DNA of 11,485 nucleotides from a virus: IMG/VR virus record IMGVR_UViG_3300044941_000346, one strand, 5' to 3'. Positions 5,100-11,485 of this stretch are shown here, in pieces. Numbering within the stretch: position 1 is the first letter of the stretch; each line of letters opens with the position of its first letter. The notes under the pieces are model-generated. The model worked only from the letters and a program-made list of their open reading frames with translations. It was not told the origin of the DNA and ran no database searches. The position numbers and the translations under genes are program-made.

Positions 5100-5923
5100 C
5101 TCTGCTCCATGCTGGTCTTCGCAGCTGAATAGAAGGCGTGCGCGTAGGGCACGTCCCACACCGCTTGATGCGCCAGCCGATGCCCGTAGAACCCATCCTC
5201 CCCATACGCTGTCCCGTGGTCCCCACATACGATACAGAACGTCTCATCCCGCAGCGATTCTAGTAGTAATGGCAGCTGGCTGTCTACATAGCGCAGCGCC
5301 GCTGCGTGCGTCTCGATCGTGTCCTCCGCCGCCCCATCTATATAAAAGCGATTCGGCTGGTGCAGCGCTGAGACATTGATAAACAGGAACGTGCGCTGCT
5401 CAGGTGCAAGCGCTCGTAGCCGCTCACCAGCTAGCTCAAACTGGTTTTTTGTAGAGTCTCGATCCGTCACGCCGAGCTTGGGCGCCCAGTGGCTCTCGTG
5501 AAATAAATTTGGTAGGACAGACCCCAGCGCCGTCTGCTTATTAAAGAAGCCCACGCCGCCGATGCAGATCGTGTGGTAGCCGCGCGCCGCCAGCCCCGTC
5601 ACAATGTCCGCCTCCTGCATCACACACGTCGTCTGTCCAGTCGTCTCCGATCCGCCAAAACTCGCCGCGAACAGCCTCACATGCCGCCCCGGTCTCGCCG
5701 GCGTCGGCAGAAACCCCGCGAAGAACGCTTGGTGTGCCGCATACGTAAAGCTCCCCGGCGTGTGCCGCCGCTCCCAGCCTCCCGGCCCGATCAGCCGCGC
5801 CAAGTGCGGCGTCTCGCCCGACCGCATCAGCCTGTCCGCCACATCAAAGCGCAGCGTATCCAGCGTCATAAACAGGATGTCGTGCGCCCCCACCACCGCG
5901 TTCATGTCCACATCATCGCTCAT
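5096..5923 (-). CDS. Alkaline-phosphatase-superfamily metallohydrolase (sulfatase/NPP/phosphonoacetate-hydrolase-like); STM4013/SEN3800-like by recollection
   Basis: The N-terminal metal-ligand block ILFMTLDTLRFD and the C-terminal block CIVCGDHGTAYGEDGFYGH (DHG...GxH) are hallmarks of the alkaline phosphatase / type I phosphodiesterase fold. The start is ambiguous. Candidates are GTG 5929 (17-bp overlap), ATG 5923 (11-bp overlap) and ATG 5905 (7-nt gap after the upstream TGA). None has a clean SD. Confidence 0.75.
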   Translation of the reverse strand: MSDDVDMNAVVGAHDILFMTLDTLRFDVADRLMRSGETPHLARLIGPGGWERRHTPGSFTYAAHQAFFAGFLPTPARPGRHVRLFAASFGGSETTGQTTCVMQEADIVTGLAARGYHTICIGGVGFFNKQTALGSVLPNLFHESHWAPKLGVTDRDSTKNQFELAGERLRALAPEQRTFLFINVSALHQPNRFYIDGAAEDTIETHAAALRYVDSQLPLLLESLRDETFCIVCGDHGTAYGEDGFYGHRLAHQAVWDVPYAHAFYSAAKTSMEQR

Positions 5924-7736
5924 CTTCACGCATCAACCACGCCTCAAGCTCTGTCACCTCGCCAAGCTCCACCTCGGGCGCTGGCTGCGCCACATGCCAC
6001 GTCCTGCCGCGCACTACCCACGCCGTCCTCAGCCCCACACACCGCGCCCCCAGCAGATCGTGCACCGGCGTATCACCGACCATCACCGCCGCGCGCGGAT
6101 CTTCCGCGCAGCCCGTCGCCGACAGCGCGGCCTCGAAGATCGCCGCGTCTGGTTTTGTAGCGCCGATCTCGTCTGAGATAAAGATCGCATCAGGATCAAA
6201 ATGTCGCAGGAGGTCAGCCCGCGCCAGCTTGTCGCGCTGGCTCGCGCTGCCACCGTTGCTCAACAGCGCCAACTTGTAACGTTTGCTCAATCGCTCAAGC
6301 ATCGCTTGAATCGCAGGCTCTGGCACAAGCTCCGCCGCGATGCGGCGCGGTAGCTCGGCCCACACGGCCCGCCACTCGCCCGCCTCCCTGCCGAGCAGCC
6401 CACACAGCGCCTCACACAACACTCGCCGATCCCCATGCCCATGCGCGTCCAGCGCAAACACCCGCGCCAGCGCCTCGTCATCACAGCCCGTCCAGCGCCG
6501 CACCGCCGCGCAGAACGCCGCGTCGCGGTCGATCAACGTGTTGTCGAGATCAAACAGCACCGCCCGTATCTTTGGCCACGCCTCCAGCCTGCCCCAGCCC
6601 GCAAAGCCCCGCACCTCCGCCGTATAGCTGTCCTCCCCACGATCATACACATTGGGCAGCAGATCCCCAAACGCATTGACCTCGATGATACGCGGCGCAT
6701 CCAGCGCATCCGCCGGGAACAACACGTCCGCCCCCAGATAATACGCGCCCGGAAACGCCTGCGCTGCCTGCCTACACAATACCTCAAGCGCGCTCCACCC
6801 CACATCTCCCACCAGCGCCCGCACCTGATCCAGCTCCCCCCGCGCGTTCCCCAGATGAAGGTTTGTCATGGGATGCTCTGAGGCCCGCACCACCACCTGA
6901 CGCGCCTCACCGCCGATCACCACCACCCGCAGATCAAAGTTTTTGTCCTGACCATCATGTCGGATCATCGCCTTTGATGACCACTTCTCCACCACCGCAC
7001 CCTCCGCCAATAAATAATTTAGCAGTAGCGCGATCTGTCGAATGTCGTGATAACGTCGCGGTCGAAGTGAATTGTAAATGGAGAACCTGCCGTCGCTGTC
7101 CTCCACCAGATGGGCCGTGGTGGTCAACATCGCGCGCGGGCCGCTGACGCGCAGAGCCGCAACGCCCGACGCAGACGAGCTGCCGCGCAGCTTCACAAAC
7201 ACCCGATCCCAGCCCGCCTCGTCCATCCGCGCCCGCAGCGCCTCCCACGATCCCACGCCCTCCAGCGATGGCATCCTCGGCACACCATGCGCGTCCAATC
7301 TGCGGTGCGTCGCCAGCTTGTCAAACATCACCGCGATCTCGTCCGGGCGGCTCATGATGCGCCCCGGCGCACCTTCAAGTATCACTTGAAGGTCGCGCAA
7401 GACCGCCTGCCAGCCCGCGCGCAGCTGCCCCGGCGCCAAAAGCCTGCCGTGCTCAAGCGGCGCACAGAGCGCCTCCTGCGCGGTAAGCGTCGGCTCGTCC
7501 AGCTCCTCCGCACCGCGCGCCAGCAGCCTGCGCGTCACGCGCGCATCCTCGCCCGGCGACTCCAGCCGCAGGATCGTGTCGTCGTCCAGCAGATCTGGCA
7601 GCACCACGCGCCCCTCCAACACGTCGAGCCACGCCACAAAGCGCGCCGCGCTGTGGCCGCTGCGCATCAGCGCGTCCTGCACGTACGCTGTGCGGCGATG
7701 CCCCGCGTTGCCCACCACCACCCACCGCCTCGTCAT
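5913..7736 (-). CDS. Two-domain fusion: N-terminal ATP-grasp ligase (RimK/glutathione-synthetase-like) + C-terminal HAD-superfamily phosphatase
   Basis: ATP-grasp: DLRVVVIGGEARQVVVRASEHPMTNLHLGNARGE matches the RimK core ([32 protein letters not shown]). The motif ...RIIEVNAFGD is also present. HAD: motif I FDLDNTL (aa ~398), S/T motif LLSNGG, Lys in GATKPD, and the motif IV block MVGDTPVHDL. The start is placed at ATG 7736..7734 (MTRRWVVVGN...), giving an ATGA overlap with the upstream LRR gene stop (7735..7733). Confidence 0.8.
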   Translation of the reverse strand: MTRRWVVVGNAGHRRTAYVQDALMRSGHSAARFVAWLDVLEGRVVLPDLLDDDTILRLESPGEDARVTRRLLARGAEELDEPTLTAQEALCAPLEHGRLLAPGQLRAGWQAVLRDLQVILEGAPGRIMSRPDEIAVMFDKLATHRRLDAHGVPRMPSLEGVGSWEALRARMDEAGWDRVFVKLRGSSSASGVAALRVSGPRAMLTTTAHLVEDSDGRFSIYNSLRPRRYHDIRQIALLLNYLLAEGAVVEKWSSKAMIRHDGQDKNFDLRVVVIGGEARQVVVRASEHPMTNLHLGNARGELDQVRALVGDVGWSALEVLCRQAAQAFPGAYYLGADVLFPADALDAPRIIEVNAFGDLLPNVYDRGEDSYTAEVRGFAGWGRLEAWPKIRAVLFDLDNTLIDRDAAFCAAVRRWTGCDDEALARVFALDAHGHGDRRVLCEALCGLLGREAGEWRAVWAELPRRIAAELVPEPAIQAMLERLSKRYKLALLSNGGSASQRDKLARADLLRHFDPDAIFISDEIGATKPDAAIFEAALSATGCAEDPRAAVMVGDTPVHDLLGARCVGLRTAWVVRGRTWHVAQPAPEVELGEVTELEAWLMREDER

Positions 7737-8992
7737 GCCATCCACCAGGGGTCATCCGGGTCGAGCGCCGCTGCGCACCAGCGCGCCCCCACCTCATCAA
7801 GCTCCGCGCGCACCGCCGCGCTGGCCGCAATCGCAGCCAGCGTCACCTCATTAAAGCCGTTCCCATTTAACACCACCCGCGCGCTCGGATGCAGCCGCGG
7901 CGACGTGATCAGCGCCAGCGCCCCCGCGTCCGTGAGCTGCGTCGCCGACAGATTTAGTAGGCGCAACTGCCCCACCCACGGCAGCGCCAGCAGCCGCTCT
8001 ACGGCTTGATCCGTCAACGGGTTGTCGCTCAGATCCAGCGCGGTCAGCCCCCAGCTGTGCCCTTCTGTGAGTGGCTCGAACAGCGTGTCCAGCGTCGCAT
8101 CGTCGATCCTGCACTCGCCCAGCTCCAGCGTCTTCAAGCGACCCAGCACCGCAGGCGCCTCGCGCAGCACATGCGCCCCTCCGTGCAAGAATAGATTGCC
8201 GCGCAGCGACAGGTGCCGCAGCGCCTCCCAGCCCGACAACGCGAAGATGTGCATACACGGCAGCCCGTGGTGCCCCTCACAGTGCTCCAGCCAGAGCGAC
8301 TCCAGCACGGGCGCCGCGTCCGCAACCTCGACCAGCGCGTCCAACCCCGCGCTGCCGCCCACGCCGAGCGGGTTGCGCGACAGATCCAGGTGCCGCAGCC
8401 CCCGCACCAGCGGTGCACGCGCCAGCCGCACCAGCGGCAGCGCCATCGGCTGCGCGTTATTGCTCGTTGCACGTGTCACGTTCGCCAGGCTCAACCGCTC
8501 AAGCGGCGGCTTATCTGGCTCATCTTGCAGCCAGGCGTCCAGCGCGCCCAACACATCATTGTCCGACAGGTCAAGCGCGCGGAGCCGGTTGTGCTCGGCC
8601 AGCCGCTCCATCAGCGGCCCCACCATATGCTCGTGCAGGCTCGTCCCAGCCAGATCGAGCTGCGTGATGTGCCCCAGCGCCGGATGCTCGATCAGGCGCT
8701 GCATCTTGTCCCGATCCGTCAGCTGCACATGCACTCGCAGCCGCCTGGCGAGCGCCAGCGCGGGCAGCTTGTCGCCCGATAGCACCCGCGCAATCCAGCG
8801 CCGAGGCGCCACCCGCCAGCTATCCTCCCAGCCGCGCAGCTGCGCCTCACAATACGGCAGCGCCTGCTCGGCCAACGATCCATCGTCTGGCCACCGCTCC
8901 AGGAGCGCGCACAGCGCCCCCCACGTCTGCGGCTCAGGCGCGCGCTGCAGTAGGCTGCGCAGCTCCCCGAACAACACCTCGCGCTCGCTCAA
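7733..8992 (-). CDS. RNI-type leucine-rich-repeat protein, paralogue A (~419 aa), with a ~75-aa Trp-rich N-terminal domain shared by the downstream paralogues
   Basis: There are multiple 25-29-aa repeats of the form LxxLxLSxNxLxDxgaxxL (LDLSDNDVLGALDAWL, LDLSRNPLGVGGSAGLDAL, LDLSDNPLTDQAVERLLAL, LNLSATQLTDAGALAL). The N-terminal domain is LFGELRSLLQRAPEPQTWGALCALLERW...ALPYCEAQLRGWEDSWRVAPRRWIARVLSG. The likely start is TTG 8992..8990, preceded by AGGTGG (9003..8998) with a 5-nt spacer, giving a TTGA 4-bp overlap with the upstream stop. The alternative is GTG 9001 (the track start). Confidence 0.75.
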   Translation of the reverse strand: MSEREVLFGELRSLLQRAPEPQTWGALCALLERWPDDGSLAEQALPYCEAQLRGWEDSWRVAPRRWIARVLSGDKLPALALARRLRVHVQLTDRDKMQRLIEHPALGHITQLDLAGTSLHEHMVGPLMERLAEHNRLRALDLSDNDVLGALDAWLQDEPDKPPLERLSLANVTRATSNNAQPMALPLVRLARAPLVRGLRHLDLSRNPLGVGGSAGLDALVEVADAAPVLESLWLEHCEGHHGLPCMHIFALSGWEALRHLSLRGNLFLHGGAHVLREAPAVLGRLKTLELGECRIDDATLDTLFEPLTEGHSWGLTALDLSDNPLTDQAVERLLALPWVGQLRLLNLSATQLTDAGALALITSPRLHPSARVVLNGNGFNEVTLAAIAASAAVRAELDEVGARWCAAALDPDDPWWMA

Positions 8993-9855
8993 GGCTCCCA
9001 CCTCTCGTCATCCACCCACACCGCAAGCTCTGGTCGCTGCGCATACAGATGCTCAAGCGCCGCGCGCACGGAGCGCTCACGCACCTCCAGCCCCGTCAGC
9101 CTGACCTCGCGCAGCGTCGGCAGCTGCTTGGGCGCCGCGCTCAACCACTCCAGGCGCACCCGGTTCCCACTTATATTTAAAGTCTCAATGCTCTCCATGC
9201 GATCCGTGAGCATCGCGTGAATCGATAGATCATTGTCGCTGATGTTAAGGTGTTTGATATGACTCATTGCGCCAGCTTTATTTATATGGACAGCATAGAC
9301 TGTGCTCAGCCCACAGCGTCGCAGGCTTATCCGAGCCAGCTTTGTCGCATCTGCGGGGAGCATCGCCCAGACACCTCGACCACCAAGTGGATTGTGATCA
9401 AGTGTCAAGGATTCGAGAACAGACCAGCTCAGATGACGCCCCAAGATCGCTCCTGCTTCCTCGCCTAAATCACACTCCGACAACATCACATGTGTGAGCG
9501 GCCCCATATCGGGGTTGCTTAATACTACCAAGAGTCCGTGATCGCCGAGCGGGCCGCGGTGGTGGAGGTGGCGGGCTAGCCGCCACAGCCTGCACCGCTC
9601 GCCGCGCAGCGTGGCCCGCATCCAAGCCGCCGGGTTGACGCGCATGGCGTCAGGCCAGGCTTTGAGGTGCTCCTCGGCGTAGGGGATGAGCATCTCCCAC
9701 AGGTAGTCATCATGCGCTGCGGGTGCCAGCACCGCGCAGATCTCGGCCCAGACAAGCGGGCAGGGCGGGCGGTGCAGCAGGCTGCGCAGCTCGGAGAGGC
9801 GCCACTCGGGCGAATCACGATGGGTTTTGGGTGAGGGAGACGGCATCAAGCTCAC
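8989..9855 (-). CDS. RNI-type leucine-rich-repeat protein, paralogue B (288 aa), same N-terminal domain family
   Basis: N-terminal domain: WRLSELRSLLHRPPCPLVWAEICAVL...LIPYAEEHLKAWPDAMRVNPAAWMRATLRGE. It aligns with paralogue A through the conserved ELRSLL, ALPY/LIPY, W(P/E)D..RV.P and W(I/M) positions. LRRs: LTLDHNPLGGRGVWAML, LNISDNDLSIHAML, LNISGNRVRLEWL. The GTG start at 9855..9853 forms a GTGA overlap with the upstream stop. ATG 9846 is the alternative. Confidence 0.75.
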   Translation of the reverse strand: MSLMPSPSPKTHRDSPEWRLSELRSLLHRPPCPLVWAEICAVLAPAAHDDYLWEMLIPYAEEHLKAWPDAMRVNPAAWMRATLRGERCRLWRLARHLHHRGPLGDHGLLVVLSNPDMGPLTHVMLSECDLGEEAGAILGRHLSWSVLESLTLDHNPLGGRGVWAMLPADATKLARISLRRCGLSTVYAVHINKAGAMSHIKHLNISDNDLSIHAMLTDRMESIETLNISGNRVRLEWLSAAPKQLPTLREVRLTGLEVRERSVRAALEHLYAQRPELAVWVDDERWEP

Positions 9856-10573
9856 AGGTCGTCGTCGTAGGGCTCCTCAAGCTCGATCATAGCCTCGTTG
9901 GCGCTGCTCAACAACTCCAGCCGCGCGTTGCAGCCGACGGGGTTGGGCGACAGGCTCAACTGCTCCATCCGTTTGAGCCACACGCACGCCGCGAGCGCAT
10001 AGGCGCCGCGCGAGTTTATGGGGTTGCGCTCAAGCTCGATCGCGGTCTGCGCCGCAAGCCGTAGGCCCGTCACCAGCAGCTCCAGCCCCTCGTCATAGAG
10101 CGCGCAGCTGTGGAGCGACAGGTTGGTCAAGGCGCGCTCGACGCCGCGCGGCGCCTATGCGGTTGTGGCTCAGGTTGGGCGAGACAAGCCGCGTCAGGTG
10201 CGGGCACTGGACGCTGGCGTGCGGATGCCCTTGTCGCTGACCGAGGACCTGTAGCGCATGACGCGCACCAGCACAAGGGACGCCCCCGGATGGCGTGCTT
10301 GATCCAATCCGGGGGCGCGACGCGCAGCGCGTCAGGCCATGTGTCCAGCGCACGCTTGAGGTAGGGCAGGGCCCTCTCGGTGAACAGATCTGGTCGCTCT
10401 GGTTGCGCCTGGTAGGCGTCGATCGCGCGTCCCAGCGCATTCCAGCGCGCCGCGTCGGGCTGGCCGTGCGCAACGCCGCAGAATTCCCCATACCAAGTTG
10501 TCTTGATTGACCTTCTTTTTGCGCTACAAAATGCGTGTTCGGTGTGGTCGGTAAAAGGCTGAGCCAAAGGCAA
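9852..10573 (-). pseudogene. Third LRR paralogue, apparently disrupted by two frameshifts (N-domain in one frame, first LRRs in a second, C-terminal LRRs + acidic tail in a third)
   Basis: Frame 1 (10127..10573) encodes the N-domain homologue WYGEFCGVAHGQPDAARWNALGRAIDAY...ALPYLKRALDTWPDALRVAPPDWIKHAIRGRPLCW. Frame 2 (within 10093..10491) continues with ARHALQVLG...CPHLTRLVSPNLSHNRIGAA, which matches paralogue B LARHLHHRGPLG...GPLTHVMLSECDLGEEAGA. Frame 3 (9852..10130) encodes LRRs and ends EEPYDDDL. This implies single-nt indels near ~10300 and ~10130. Confidence 0.5.
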
Positions 10574-10639
10574 TGAGGCAGAATGAAGGAAGCTTGGTAT
10601 TATTTGTTATCTTATCTCCTCGTTTTATCGTGGTCTTTG

Positions 10640-10825
10640 TTATGTGTTAAAGTGACGGTTTAAGCGTGGCCGCTCACTCCACCAAGTCGTAGAACGTGCC
10701 AAACTCGATCTCCAGAGCGCCTTCCACGCCTCGGCGCTGGACGGCTGCTCCAGCGCGCTGCGCAGCTCACCGAACCGCGCGCTGTGATCACTCACCGACT
10801 TCGACATACCAGTAGTCATCGTCAT
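10640..10825 (-). pseudogene. Orphan fragment of the LRR-paralogue N-terminal domain (first ~25 aa conserved, then degenerates and stops)
   Basis: The 61-aa ORF contains ARFGELRSALEQPSSAEAWKALW, closely matching LFGELRSLLQRAPEPQTWGALCALLERW of paralogue A. The remainder has no similarity and runs into the AT-rich spacer. It overlaps the 3' end of the upstream LRR gene in another frame. Confidence 0.3.
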
Positions 10826-11485
10826 CGTCGGCGCGGCGCTGCCCGCCGTTACGCACCGTCACGCCCGTCGCGCGGAGCTGGTCGATCAGCTCCTCATCGC
10901 CGATGAAGTTATTGGTGATATCAATCGACTTGAGCTTGCCGATCTTTGGATTCCTCGCTAGCGCACCGGCTCCTGTATTCGACATGATCCCCTTCGACAG
11001 ATCCAGCTCCTCCAGGAAGTCCAGCACAGGCGCATCAAACAGCGCCTCCGCCAGCTCGTCCGCCAGCTCGCTGTTCACCAGCCCCAGCCGCTTGAGCTTG
11101 GGGAACGGATACCGCATCTCCGGATACGCTGTCCCCACCAGCAGCGGCTTCACATCCTCCACCGTCACGTCCGCCCCGTACTCGCTGCTCCCCGTCCAGA
11201 TCTCCAGATGCTGCAGGTTCGGCAGCTTCGCGCTCACGATCTGGCGCACCGTGTGGCCGCTCACGCCGCCTGTCTCCACGATCAGCGTCTCCAGCGTCGG
11301 GTGGCTCAGGCCCGTGAACCCCAGCCCGTTGCCGCCGCGCGCCTTGAAGTGCTTGAGCTTGGGGAAGGCGTTGATCACCGCGCCCAGATCAAACTGCTCG
11401 ATCCACGACACCTCGCTCTCCTCATAGGAGATGTCGCCCACAAACAGCGCCTCCAAGGAGGTGAGCTTGGGCGCCGCCGCCCGCA
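10788..11485 (-). CDS. RNI-type LRR protein, 5'-partial (start lies beyond the window end), with acidic/aromatic C-terminal tail DDDDDYWYVEVGE
   Basis: The open frame runs off the window at 11485; M at 11456 is only the first in-window Met. Repeats LETLIVETGGVSGHTVRQI, LQHLEIW, LKRLGLVNSELADELAEAL, LEELDLSKGIMSNTGAGALA, LKSIDITNNFIGDEELIDQL are RNI-like LRRs. The composition (more K/I/F) differs from paralogues A/B, so it may be a distinct LRR subtype. Confidence 0.75.
   Translation of the reverse strand, partial: RAAAPKLTSLEALFVGDISYEESEVSWIEQFDLGAVINAFPKLKHFKARGGNGLGFTGLSHPTLETLIVETGGVSGHTVRQIVSAKLPNLQHLEIWTGSSEYGADVTVEDVKPLLVGTAYPEMRYPFPKLKRLGLVNSELADELAEALFDAPVLDFLEELDLSKGIMSNTGAGALARNPKIGKLKSIDITNNFIGDEELIDQLRATGVTVRNGGQRRADDDDDYWYVEVGE

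Follow-up and report, generated by a model that had tools for sequence, protein, structure and literature searches.

The internalins of Listeria form a bacterial LRR multigene family that evolves by duplication, by change in repeat number and by decay. The lgr genes of Protochlamydia constitute another such family, with the same three processes at work (PMC2216083). The array analysed here shares with these families paralogues in tandem or dispersed positions, varying numbers of LRR units, pseudogenes and a lineage-specific copy number. It differs in that a conserved enzyme cluster surrounds it beside an MVP-like gene, and signal peptides or surface anchors were not noticed in its proteins.

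The array proteins also resemble the RNI-like LRR proteins (RNH1, the NLRP LRR domains, RanGAP and LegL1 of Legionella). The intact array protein P422 likewise models as an alternating strand/helix horseshoe behind a helical cap (AlphaFold, pLDDT 88.5), with the ribonuclease inhibitor and NLRP LRR domains as its best PDB matches and E = 1e-10 to 1e-11 against ribonuclease inhibitor, NLRP3/NLRP14 and LegL1, and RNI-like units of the form LxxLxLSxNxIGxxG are carried by the frame-0 and frame-2 segments of the pseudogene described below. Unlike RNI-like proteins, the array proteins have a helical N-terminal domain of ~90 aa (FGELRSLL...W..LC.LL...LPY...L..WPD.LRVAP..W), hereafter the N-domain, for which no significant Pfam or NCBIfam model was found. 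An analogous architecture, a short helical N-domain followed by RI-type LRRs, is known from the TIGR02996 'repeat-companion domain' proteins of Gemmata, Planctomycetes and Myxococcota, and many distant LRR matches are labelled by JGI as TIGR02996-type proteins; however, no array protein of the window matches TIGR02996 at E ≤ 0.01, and the N-domain motif is different. The STM4015 family (NF038076), the LRR-containing first gene of its cluster, has the array directly downstream. The last LRR units of P422 match NF038076 weakly (44.5 bits, far below the 275-bit cut-off), while P288, a second intact array protein, and the pieces of the pseudogene gave no match to this model. Several array members in relatives share the acidic tail of STM4015 that ends in Glu, but the N-termini of the array proteins differ from that of STM4015.

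Genomic Setting of the Array

The window (the whole analysed stretch of 11,485 nt) is contained in a JGI metagenome contig on which an array of "N-domain + ribonuclease-inhibitor-type LRR" genes lies between STM4015 and STM4014, within an STM4011-4015 cluster that adjoins an MVP-like gene. The cluster enzymes around the array comprise two radical SAM enzymes, one sulfatase-like hydrolase and one ATP-grasp/HAD fusion. All features given below are on the (−) strand. The STM4015-family gene, which opens the operon-like block, is represented by its 3′ part (10788..11485; NCBIfam NF038076, E = 9.6e-68 on the partial product), exceeds the window and measures 309 aa in full on the source contig (L081 2583-3512). 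Two intact paralogues were found. P288 (8989..9855; N-domain profile E = 2e-27), the downstream neighbour of the pseudogene, contains the N-domain and LRRs and has the gene L082_g292 as its orthologue with 41% identity, and P422 (7733..8992; profile E = 1e-34) encodes 419 aa from an ATG at 8992. The array genes overlap by 4 nt. In the 16.6 kb retrieved from the source contig, the other called genes carry no disruption comparable to that of the pseudogene, whose region was left mostly unannotated by the JGI gene calling, the sole call there being a 92-aa terminal piece.

A search of genome contigs with STM4014 gave 80 species-level STM401x loci, none of them a close relative (≤47% identity), and neither the N-domain (0/80) nor an MVP-like gene (0/80) was present in them. 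Metagenome contigs searched with the P288 family and with the pseudogene family gave no match for either, and the reconstructed pseudogene product had 0 matches in a word-indexed protein search, an exhaustive HMMER search being required in its place. No defence system was assigned when the cluster proteins were compared with PADLOC-DB 2.0, in which neither LRR nor MVP matches were found and the similarities were at the radical-SAM level only (pVip, E = 0.003; PDC-M51A, 4.7e-9 over a partial stretch). A neighbourhood like that of the array was not found described in the literature on STM401x and bacterial MVP.

Structure of the Pseudogene

A profile of the N-domain, built from 25 homologues all external to the window, was run on the six-frame translation of the window and matched it at four places, namely P422, P288, a frame-1 stretch at 10606-10130 (E = 2.4e-15, profile positions 9-82) and an orphan stretch, with the next match at background level (E = 0.08). 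The GC3 frame plot, which is independent of homology, revealed that the best frame changes from 1 to 2 to 0 to 2 over 10515-9855, with a GC3 of 0.84-1.00 in the favoured frame, and the LRR profile matches in the three frames agree with this plot. On its reading frames, 10495-9852 is a pseudogene with three independent out-of-frame lesions (at ~10267, ~10211 and ~10146), a lost start and a degraded N-terminal motif.

Segment A (10268..10495, frame 1) carries the N-domain, WYGEFCGVAHGQPDAARW...WIKHAIRGRPLCW, on which the profile match of E = 2.4e-15 falls. It shares 54% aa identity with its orthologue at the related locus L094, and 69.6% identity over 289 nt at the DNA level (E = 2e-29), while the conserved 'ELRS' (LRS) motif of the family now reads 'EFCG'. 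The frame contains neither ATG nor GTG from a stop at ~10606 to the beginning of the domain at 10495; the only upstream in-frame TTG codons, at 10573 and 10567, have no Shine-Dalgarno sequence, whereas the L094 orthologue has the start signals GGAG-N10-ATG. The first frame change (10265..10268, frame 1 to 2) is a net 10-nt deletion relative to the orthologues, by which their 'PW-LALA-RVIRY' has become 'CW..RVMRY'; both L094 and P0101 are continuous there. Segment B (10212..10265, frame 2), RVMRYRSSVSDKGIRTPA, shows 65% identity to RVIRYSASVSDKGVRMLAQS of L094 and has a GC3 of 0.95-1.00 in its frame.

The second change (10209..10218, frame 2 to 0) consists of 2 extra nt relative to L094 in the DNA alignment, which fall between an Ala and a Gln codon, the exact site being ambiguous within this interval. 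Segment C (10147..10209, frame 0), QCPHLTRLVSPNLSHNRIGAA, is the first LRR unit, with 47-50% identity to SPWLEQLDTLDLSDNRI of L094, a GC3 of 0.85-0.90 and a weak LRR profile match of 8.2 bits. At the third change (10145..10147, frame 0 to 2) there is one excess nt at 10146, and the site coincides in the protein alignment with a missing LRR unit of 28 aa that is present in L094, so that the lesion would be either a 1-nt insertion or the loss of an LRR unit out of register. Segment D (9852..10145, frame 2; LRR profile E = 1e-10), GVERALTNLSLHSC...IELEEPYDDDL, comprises ~3 LRR units and an acidic tail, and its TGA stop overlaps the start of P288 (GTGA). The tail resembles those of a 35-aa fragment in locus L082 (...IIEVDSEYDID and a stop) and of P0101 (...DIDEPYY).

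The LRR units lie in frames 2, 0 and 2 in turn, and each incoming frame runs into stops, which makes this a pseudogene of the N-domain + RI-type LRR family and not a functional member. The ORF of P0101 (338 aa) passes unbroken through the three sites, and that of the L094 orthologue (52-54% aa identity) through sites 1 and 3. The GC3 is very high in all four segments, which suggests that the inactivation is not ancient. A crude dN/dS of the pseudogene against L094 was 0.58-0.66, within the 0.19-0.67 given by the intact array genes, so that the measure separates neither the pseudogene from these genes nor arms-race from relaxed selection. The sequence-only reading had recognised a frameshifted paralogue, which stands, but had counted two shifts, at ~10300 and ~10130, where GC3, the frame translations and the DNA alignment give three; its homology from 10573 was likewise placed too far upstream, since homology starts at ~10495, 10496-10573 belongs to an AT-rich spacer and the TTG at 10573 merely marks the start chosen by an ORF finder.

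Spacer, Orphan Fragment and Probable Deletion Scar

An AT-rich spacer of 173 nt (10490..10662, 40% GC), delimited by its composition and by alignment to L094, replaces the start region of the pseudogene and occupies the place of 27 nt, including the ATG, in the L094 orthologue. Its GC content is the lowest on the source contig (16.6 kb profiled). No Rfam match, no promoter consensus (a sigma-70-like promoter was sought) or terminator consensus, and no stable or structured RNA (fold z-score 0.61) were found in it. The Logan contigs of three sequencing runs break within the spacer, with a 59-nt overlap at 10518-10576. The spacer was also considered as a MITE, but this has no support, as the inverted repeat 10600-10582 / 10508-10490 pairs at only 15/19 bases and no second copy occurs in the 1.56 Mb of loci covered.

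Upstream of the spacer lies an orphan 5′ fragment of an N-domain/LRR gene, MSKSVSDHSARFGELRSALEQPSSAEAWKALW, with 32 codons (10712..10807; profile E = 6e-7), which matches profile positions 3-28 of 96 only and has its ATG at 10807, inside the end of STM4015. Its best match is the N-terminus of a 329-aa gene after STM4015b in locus L090 (14/22 identical), with a score of 70, while other paralogues scored 34-58, and the fragment is identical in the independent Logan contig L089. An N-domain fragment had been proposed at 10640-10825; the fragment is real, but homology covers only 10789-10712, the likely ATG-started extent is 10807-10712, and the remainder of that ORF is out-of-frame read-through.

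The 14 codons at 10674..10718, ALEIEFGTFYDLVE with a stop, are in a frame that differs from that of the orphan and are probably the C-terminal remnant of a second paralogue of a '275-aa type', to judge from comparison with the tail of L090_7515, '...PLEFSSFHDLME' and a stop, and with the end '...IYFESFHDLME' and a stop of the gene upstream of the L094 orthologue. In blastn the remnant gave 82% over 33 nt (E = 0.001), the best match of the window and in the syntenic position, and in tblastn it was the top match (E = 0.055), so the assignment has modest statistics and good synteny. GC3 favours the frame of the remnant over 10718-10674, and in L094 the end of the 275-type gene lies 8 nt upstream of the ATG of the orthologue. 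The orphan is probably fused out of frame to these last 14 codons, a fusion that would mark a deletion of ~1.7 kb with its putative junction at ~10716.

Gene Content among Relatives

The number of array genes per relative ranges from about 4 to at least 11, suggesting gene gain and loss. The loci L090, L091 and L092 carry STM4015a, LRR389, STM4015b, LRR329, LRR275, LRR336, LRR363 and more, and L082 holds two P422-like copies with a divergent middle, whose identity is 92% at the 5′ end and 84% at the 3′ end. The sequence-only reading of an array in flux is thereby borne out, gene content differing between lineages, but the recent duplication that it saw in the window is not, as the paralogues there share only 33-40% aa identity in the N-domain, with a best DNA repeat of 79% over 38 nt. 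Separate counterparts of the pseudogene, of P288 and of P422 occur in other lineages (loci L082, L090 and L094), so the duplications predate those lineage splits. An origin of STM4015 as an a/b recombinant, which would explain the loss of LRR389 and STM4015b, was dropped, since sliding identity decided neither way.

Independent Sequence Data and Alternative Explanations

The Logan contigs from SRR35364708, SRR35364710 and SRR35364711, made with a different assembler from that of the window, are 99.9-100% identical to the window from 10518 onward with 0 gaps, and thus run gap-free across all three frame-change sites. The runs show no variation in length; two match the window exactly, one departs from it by two substitutions, and all three contain the downstream 92-aa ORF of the pseudogene. 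As the runs may share a study with the JGI assembly, they exclude assembler error and not a hypothetical platform-wide systematic error. The lesions are real in population DNA and are not products of assembly.

It is extremely improbable, on these data, that the strain has one intact LRR gene in which errors of sequencing or assembly in GC-rich DNA produced the frame changes, as the earlier suggestion of homopolymer errors would have it. The region does have 67-70% GC, a G5 run lies ~16 nt upstream of site 1, and the JGI gene caller left most of the region unannotated; yet none of the sites (0/3) falls within a run of four or more bases, a 10-nt deletion and a 2-nt insertion relative to orthologues are not homopolymer slips, the lost start codon and the degraded ELRS motif are not explicable by indel errors, and the other called genes on the retrieved 16.6 kb are undisrupted. 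We consider it very improbable that the pseudogene is still expressed, whether because ribosomes are programmed to shift frame in the linker that joins the N-domain to the first LRR or because a phase-variation switch lies there. In the L094 orthologue, from another lineage, a C4 run only ~8 nt away from site 2 of the window has separately lost 1 nt, and the very high GC3 of the four segments would also fit continued expression. However, the L094 lesion and site 2 are different events, a frameshift common to both at one Pro codon having been rejected when the DNA alignment resolved two nearby ones, and the sites are not conserved, L094 being intact at 1 and 3 and P0101 at all three. All three separate shifts would need bypassing in a gene without a start codon, no X_XXY_YYZ slippery heptamer occurs within −15 to +45 nt of any site (as the sequence-only reading had suspected when it called for this check), and phase variation has neither a long enough repeat tract nor length variation among the three runs to act through.

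It is also unlikely that the pieces are retained for a function, with the 92-codon terminal ORF (10130-9852) and the orphan mini-ORF serving as coupling ORFs or small proteins and the spacer driving transcription, as an internal promoter, of P288, P422, STM4014 and the genes that follow. The stop of the 92-aa ORF overlaps the P288 start (GTGA) like other junctions in the block, the orphan ATG lies inside the STM4015 3′ end, and the spacer, with the lowest GC of the 16.6 kb retrieved, contains an RBS-like 'ACGAGGAGATAAGA' that matches one of the intergenic regions of L090. Nevertheless, the search of the spacer for a sigma-70-like promoter, a terminator or a structured RNA found none, the 92-aa ORF begins at a TTG without an evident ribosome-binding site and is a mere tail of the LRR domain that could not fold alone, and no sign was seen that the fragments are conserved as such.

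Proposed History and Significance

The region 10807-9852 very probably holds what is left of three genes of a tandem array, which encodes cytoplasmic proteins with a helical N-domain and ribonuclease-inhibitor-type LRRs. A gene of the '329-aa type' would originally have followed STM4015, with one of the '275-aa type' next, and both would have been removed by a single deletion of ~1.7 kb that left 32 codons of the former joined, in a different frame, to 14 codons of the latter. This is one of several possible histories, since the ancestral order was reconstructed from short metagenomic contigs of lineages with only 40-70% protein identity. The translation start of the third gene may have been replaced by the 173-nt AT-rich spacer, either old decayed DNA or an insertion, after which frame-breaking indels would have accumulated in that gene unopposed by selection. 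We infer both the deletion and the spacer steps from related metagenomic loci. By themselves the remnants would be functionless, although the 92-codon terminal ORF may at most keep ribosomes reaching P288. The array appears to evolve by gene gain and loss, related lineages having many more or freshly duplicated members, and the window shows gene decay that is real but of an ordinary kind, in an array whose members vary in number.

There is a small chance that the array is a repertoire of interchangeable LRR modules that turns over as genes are gained and lost, with the neighbouring enzymes servicing it. If so, the RimK-like ATP-grasp STM4014 and the two radical SAM enzymes could recognise or modify the acidic tails or, alternatively, the tails could direct docking to the MVP-like shell. 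Rapid turnover of specificity modules would then be recorded by the pseudogene and the deletion scar, and a preferred point of inactivation would be hinted at by the two independent linker lesions, one in the window and one in L094.

Read as the wreckage of three array genes, the region is an unannotated pseudogene with a deletion scar and not three small ORFs, which mainly helps the annotation of the contig. It also serves as a marker that related lineages quickly gain and lose genes of the LRR array in the widespread, uncharacterised STM4011-4015 cluster, as would be expected of binding modules with changing targets or of dispensable accessories.

A separate observation concerns the C-termini, and the terminal Glu of STM4015 may be a more useful lead to the role of the cluster. 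All STM4015 homologues examined share a C-terminus in which an acidic stretch precedes [YRF][YF][VIC]x[VL][SGAT]E-COOH. The C-terminal Glu is also found in three array LRR genes of relatives and in the 10718-10674 remnant of the window, and several other array genes carry acidic-aromatic tails, which distant singleton members of the family do not.

Gene order of the locus

The minus strand carries every gene of the window. STM4015 (10788 to the window end) comes first in order, and the region in question, a decayed N-domain and LRR gene (the pseudogene, 10495-9852) preceded by an orphan N-domain fragment (10807-10712), lies between it and the intact N-domain and LRR gene P288 (9855-8989). A second intact paralogue, P422 (8992/9001-7733), is followed by STM4014 (5913-7745), an ATP-grasp fused to a C-terminal HAD hydrolase (HAD-type phosphatase domain), then by the STM4013 hydrolase, the radical SAM enzymes STM4012 and STM4011 and, directly downstream of STM4011, an 826-aa protein (131-2611) with major-vault-protein (MVP) shoulder and vault-repeat domains. 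The window derives from the 19.5-kb contig Ga0484951_003065 of JGI metagenome 3300044940, in which array genes and their neighbours overlap by 4 nt. On the minus strand of the region of interest, JGI called only an ORF of 92 aa; a 43-aa gene annotated on the opposite strand inside the pseudogene (10123-10254, +) is almost certainly a false gene prediction, the GC-rich DNA there being non-coding.

The STM4014-HAD fusion was also found in only five of 80 loci, four from Flammeovirga and one from an alphaproteobacterial MAG. No relative of the MVP-like protein was detected within 10 kb of 80 species-level STM4011-4015 loci, and a 2019 preprint on MVP homologues in bacteria is silent on gene neighbourhoods. 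In base composition, the C-terminal half of P288 (9100-9400) has an unusually low GC content of about 52-57%, the GC3 of this gene is 0.71 against 0.84-0.86 in the neighbouring genes, and 9500-10500 is without the strong GC skew seen in the genes on either side.

A pseudogene with three frame changes

Translation of the region gave family-like sequence in three frames. An N-terminal-domain profile of 25 homologues, all external to the window, produced exactly four significant matches in the six-frame translation of the window, namely P422 (E = 1e-34), P288 (E = 2e-27), the frame-1 stretch of the pseudogene upstream of 10268 (E = 2.4e-15, profile positions 9-82) and the orphan (E = 6e-7, profile positions 3-28), with the next-best match at a background of E = 0.08. 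The GC3 frame plot, which is independent of homology, showed the favoured frame passing from 1 to 2 to 0 to 2 between 10515 and 9855, with GC3 in that frame of 0.84-1.00. Both the frameshifted paralogue and the orphan fragment noticed in the sequence-only reading are therefore real, but there are three frame changes (~10267, ~10211 and ~10146) rather than a double frameshift.

With the reconstructed product (218 aa) as query, an exhaustive HMMER search recovered P0097 (52% identity), encoded on the Logan contig L094 of another lineage, and P0101, an intact protein of 338 aa (33% identity) whose C-terminal end ('...DIDEPYY') resembles that of the pseudogene ('...EEPYDDDL'). The L094 orthologue has a GGAG-ATG start and a normal N-terminus, 'FGELRSAAHGSPDAAGW', which reads 'YGEFCGVAHGQPDAARW' in the window, where the pseudogene is left with neither ATG nor GTG in frame. 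DNA alignment defined the three lesions: a net 10-nt deletion at site 1 ('PW-LALA-RVIRY' to 'CW..RVMRY'), 2 extra nucleotides between Ala and Gln codons at site 2 (~10211), and 1 excess nucleotide at site 3 (10146), coinciding with the absence of a 28-aa LRR unit present in L094. The L094 orthologue, known from a single Logan contig, appears to have lost 1 nt independently, from a C4 run at the conserved Pro codon (nt 428-436), ~8 nt from site 2 of the window, and is split into two called ORFs. A frameshift common to both was rejected, since the DNA alignment shows separate events.

Sequencing or assembly error had been offered as the alternative to decay. Three Logan contigs, from three different runs and an assembler other than that of the window, match it from 10518 onward without gaps (100%, 99.9% and 100% identical), and another (L089) is 100% identical over STM4015, the orphan and part of the spacer between them and the pseudogene. 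Together with the 10-nt and 2-nt lesions and the missing start codon, these contigs exclude assembly error for practical purposes. Homopolymers of at least four bases are absent at all three sites, and no canonical slippery heptamer lies near any of them, in agreement with the first inspection. Decay and recombination, the core of the earlier reading, stand.

The pseudogene contains a perfect 17-nt inverted repeat (10145-10161 / 9996-10012; CGCATAGGCGCCGCGCG / CGCGCGGCGCCTATGCG), its arms 132 nt apart; only 14 of 2000 shuffles produced such a repeat. The excess base of the third frame change falls in its end, and the change would be compatible with a template switch there.

Probable deletion scar and AT-rich spacer

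Upstream of the array, the related loci L090, L091 and L092 share synteny (Omp85, SUI1) with the window; they have a much larger array, ordered STM4015a, LRR389, STM4015b, LRR329, LRR275, LRR336, LRR363 and a gene whose first 42 residues are similar to the N-terminus of the pseudogene. In a further locus, L082, a pseudogene-type C-terminus is followed by a P288 orthologue, two P422-like genes and STM4014. The orphan is most similar to the N-terminus of LRR329, which follows STM4015b (identity at 14 of 22 residues, score 70; other paralogues score 34-58). Directly after the orphan, in another frame, 10718-10674 translates as 'ALEIEFGTFYDLVE*', similar to the C-terminus of LRR275 ('...PLEFSSFHDLME*') and to that of the gene lying 8 nt ahead of the L094 orthologue ('...IYFESFHDLME*'); the DNA of this remnant matches at 82% identity across 33 nt (E = 0.001), in the syntenic place and better than any other part of the window. 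The simplest history of orphan and remnant would be a single ~1.7-kb deletion that began near codon 32 of a 329-type gene and stopped 14 codons short of the end of a 275-type gene; the evidence from the tail is modest. The two STM4015 paralogues of L090 (3364-6441) are 61% identical and each precedes a different LRR gene; the N-terminal half of STM4015 in the window resembles copy 'a', while the orphan behind it resembles the gene after copy 'b'. An a/b recombination of STM4015 is possible.

Between the stop of the remnant and the N-domain of the pseudogene lies a spacer of 173 nt with 40% GC, the minimum over the 16.6 kb of source contig profiled; L094 has 27 nt at this position, ATG included. 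The spacer showed neither an RNA family nor a promoter or terminator consensus, and no stable fold. A stretch of it matches the RBS region ahead of STM4015b in L090 at 19 of 21 nt, a hint that the spacer is decayed array DNA and not a foreign element. Logan contigs of three runs all begin at 10518 and the upstream contig stops at 10576, so that the assembly graph breaks reproducibly inside the spacer, with an overlap of 59 nt; the population may hold this segment in a second genomic context, or may contain a structural variant.

Gene gain and loss in the array

The N-domains of the paralogues are 33-40% identical, the top DNA repeat between them reaches 79% over 38 nt, and the pseudogene, P288 and P422 each have separate counterparts in other lineages, all of which speaks against the recent duplication previously proposed within this window. 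Relatives do show recent duplication, so the family as a whole can be called an array in flux, through gain and loss of genes. The tandem P422-like duplicates g408 and g413 of L082 (1012-3547) share 92% identity in their first 280 nt and 84% in their last 450 nt but diverge in the central LRR region, a pattern suggestive of gene conversion or diversification. In L083 (1-2521), a 1294-bp unit is repeated at 99.9%, which could be a genuine tandem arrangement or a cycle in the assembly. For the pseudogene versus L094, Nei-Gojobori estimates of dN/dS (0.58-0.66) lie among the values for intact array genes compared across lineages (0.19-0.67) and hence do not separate relaxed from diversifying selection. 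The region is a genuine but ordinary pseudogene plus deletion scar, and the surrounding LRR array is unusual and fast-changing.

Family identity and C-terminal tails

In the predicted structure of P422 (pLDDT 88.5, confident), five N-terminal helices cap an LRR horseshoe, with ribonuclease inhibitor, NLRP LRR domains and Legionella LegL1 as best PDB matches. No Pfam or NCBIfam model matches the N-domain significantly, neither it nor the MVP-like gene occurs in any of 80 species-level STM401x loci, and PADLOC assigned no defence system. Distant family members are single genes in unrelated neighbourhoods, and these singleton N-LRR proteins are without an acidic/Glu tail. All 40 STM4015 homologues (P0056-P0095) have at their C-terminus an acidic run and then the motif [YRF][YF][VIC]x[VL][SGAT]E (window 10788-10814), the last residue being Glu in 40/40. 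Three array LRR genes of L090 (6522-7511, 7515-8342 and 8364-9374) end in ...WE or ...ME, and the window remnant (10718-10674) in ...YDLVE*. The conserved Glu tails, together with the adjoining genes for two radical SAM enzymes and a RimK-like ATP-grasp, suggest that the C-terminus may be modified or recognised.
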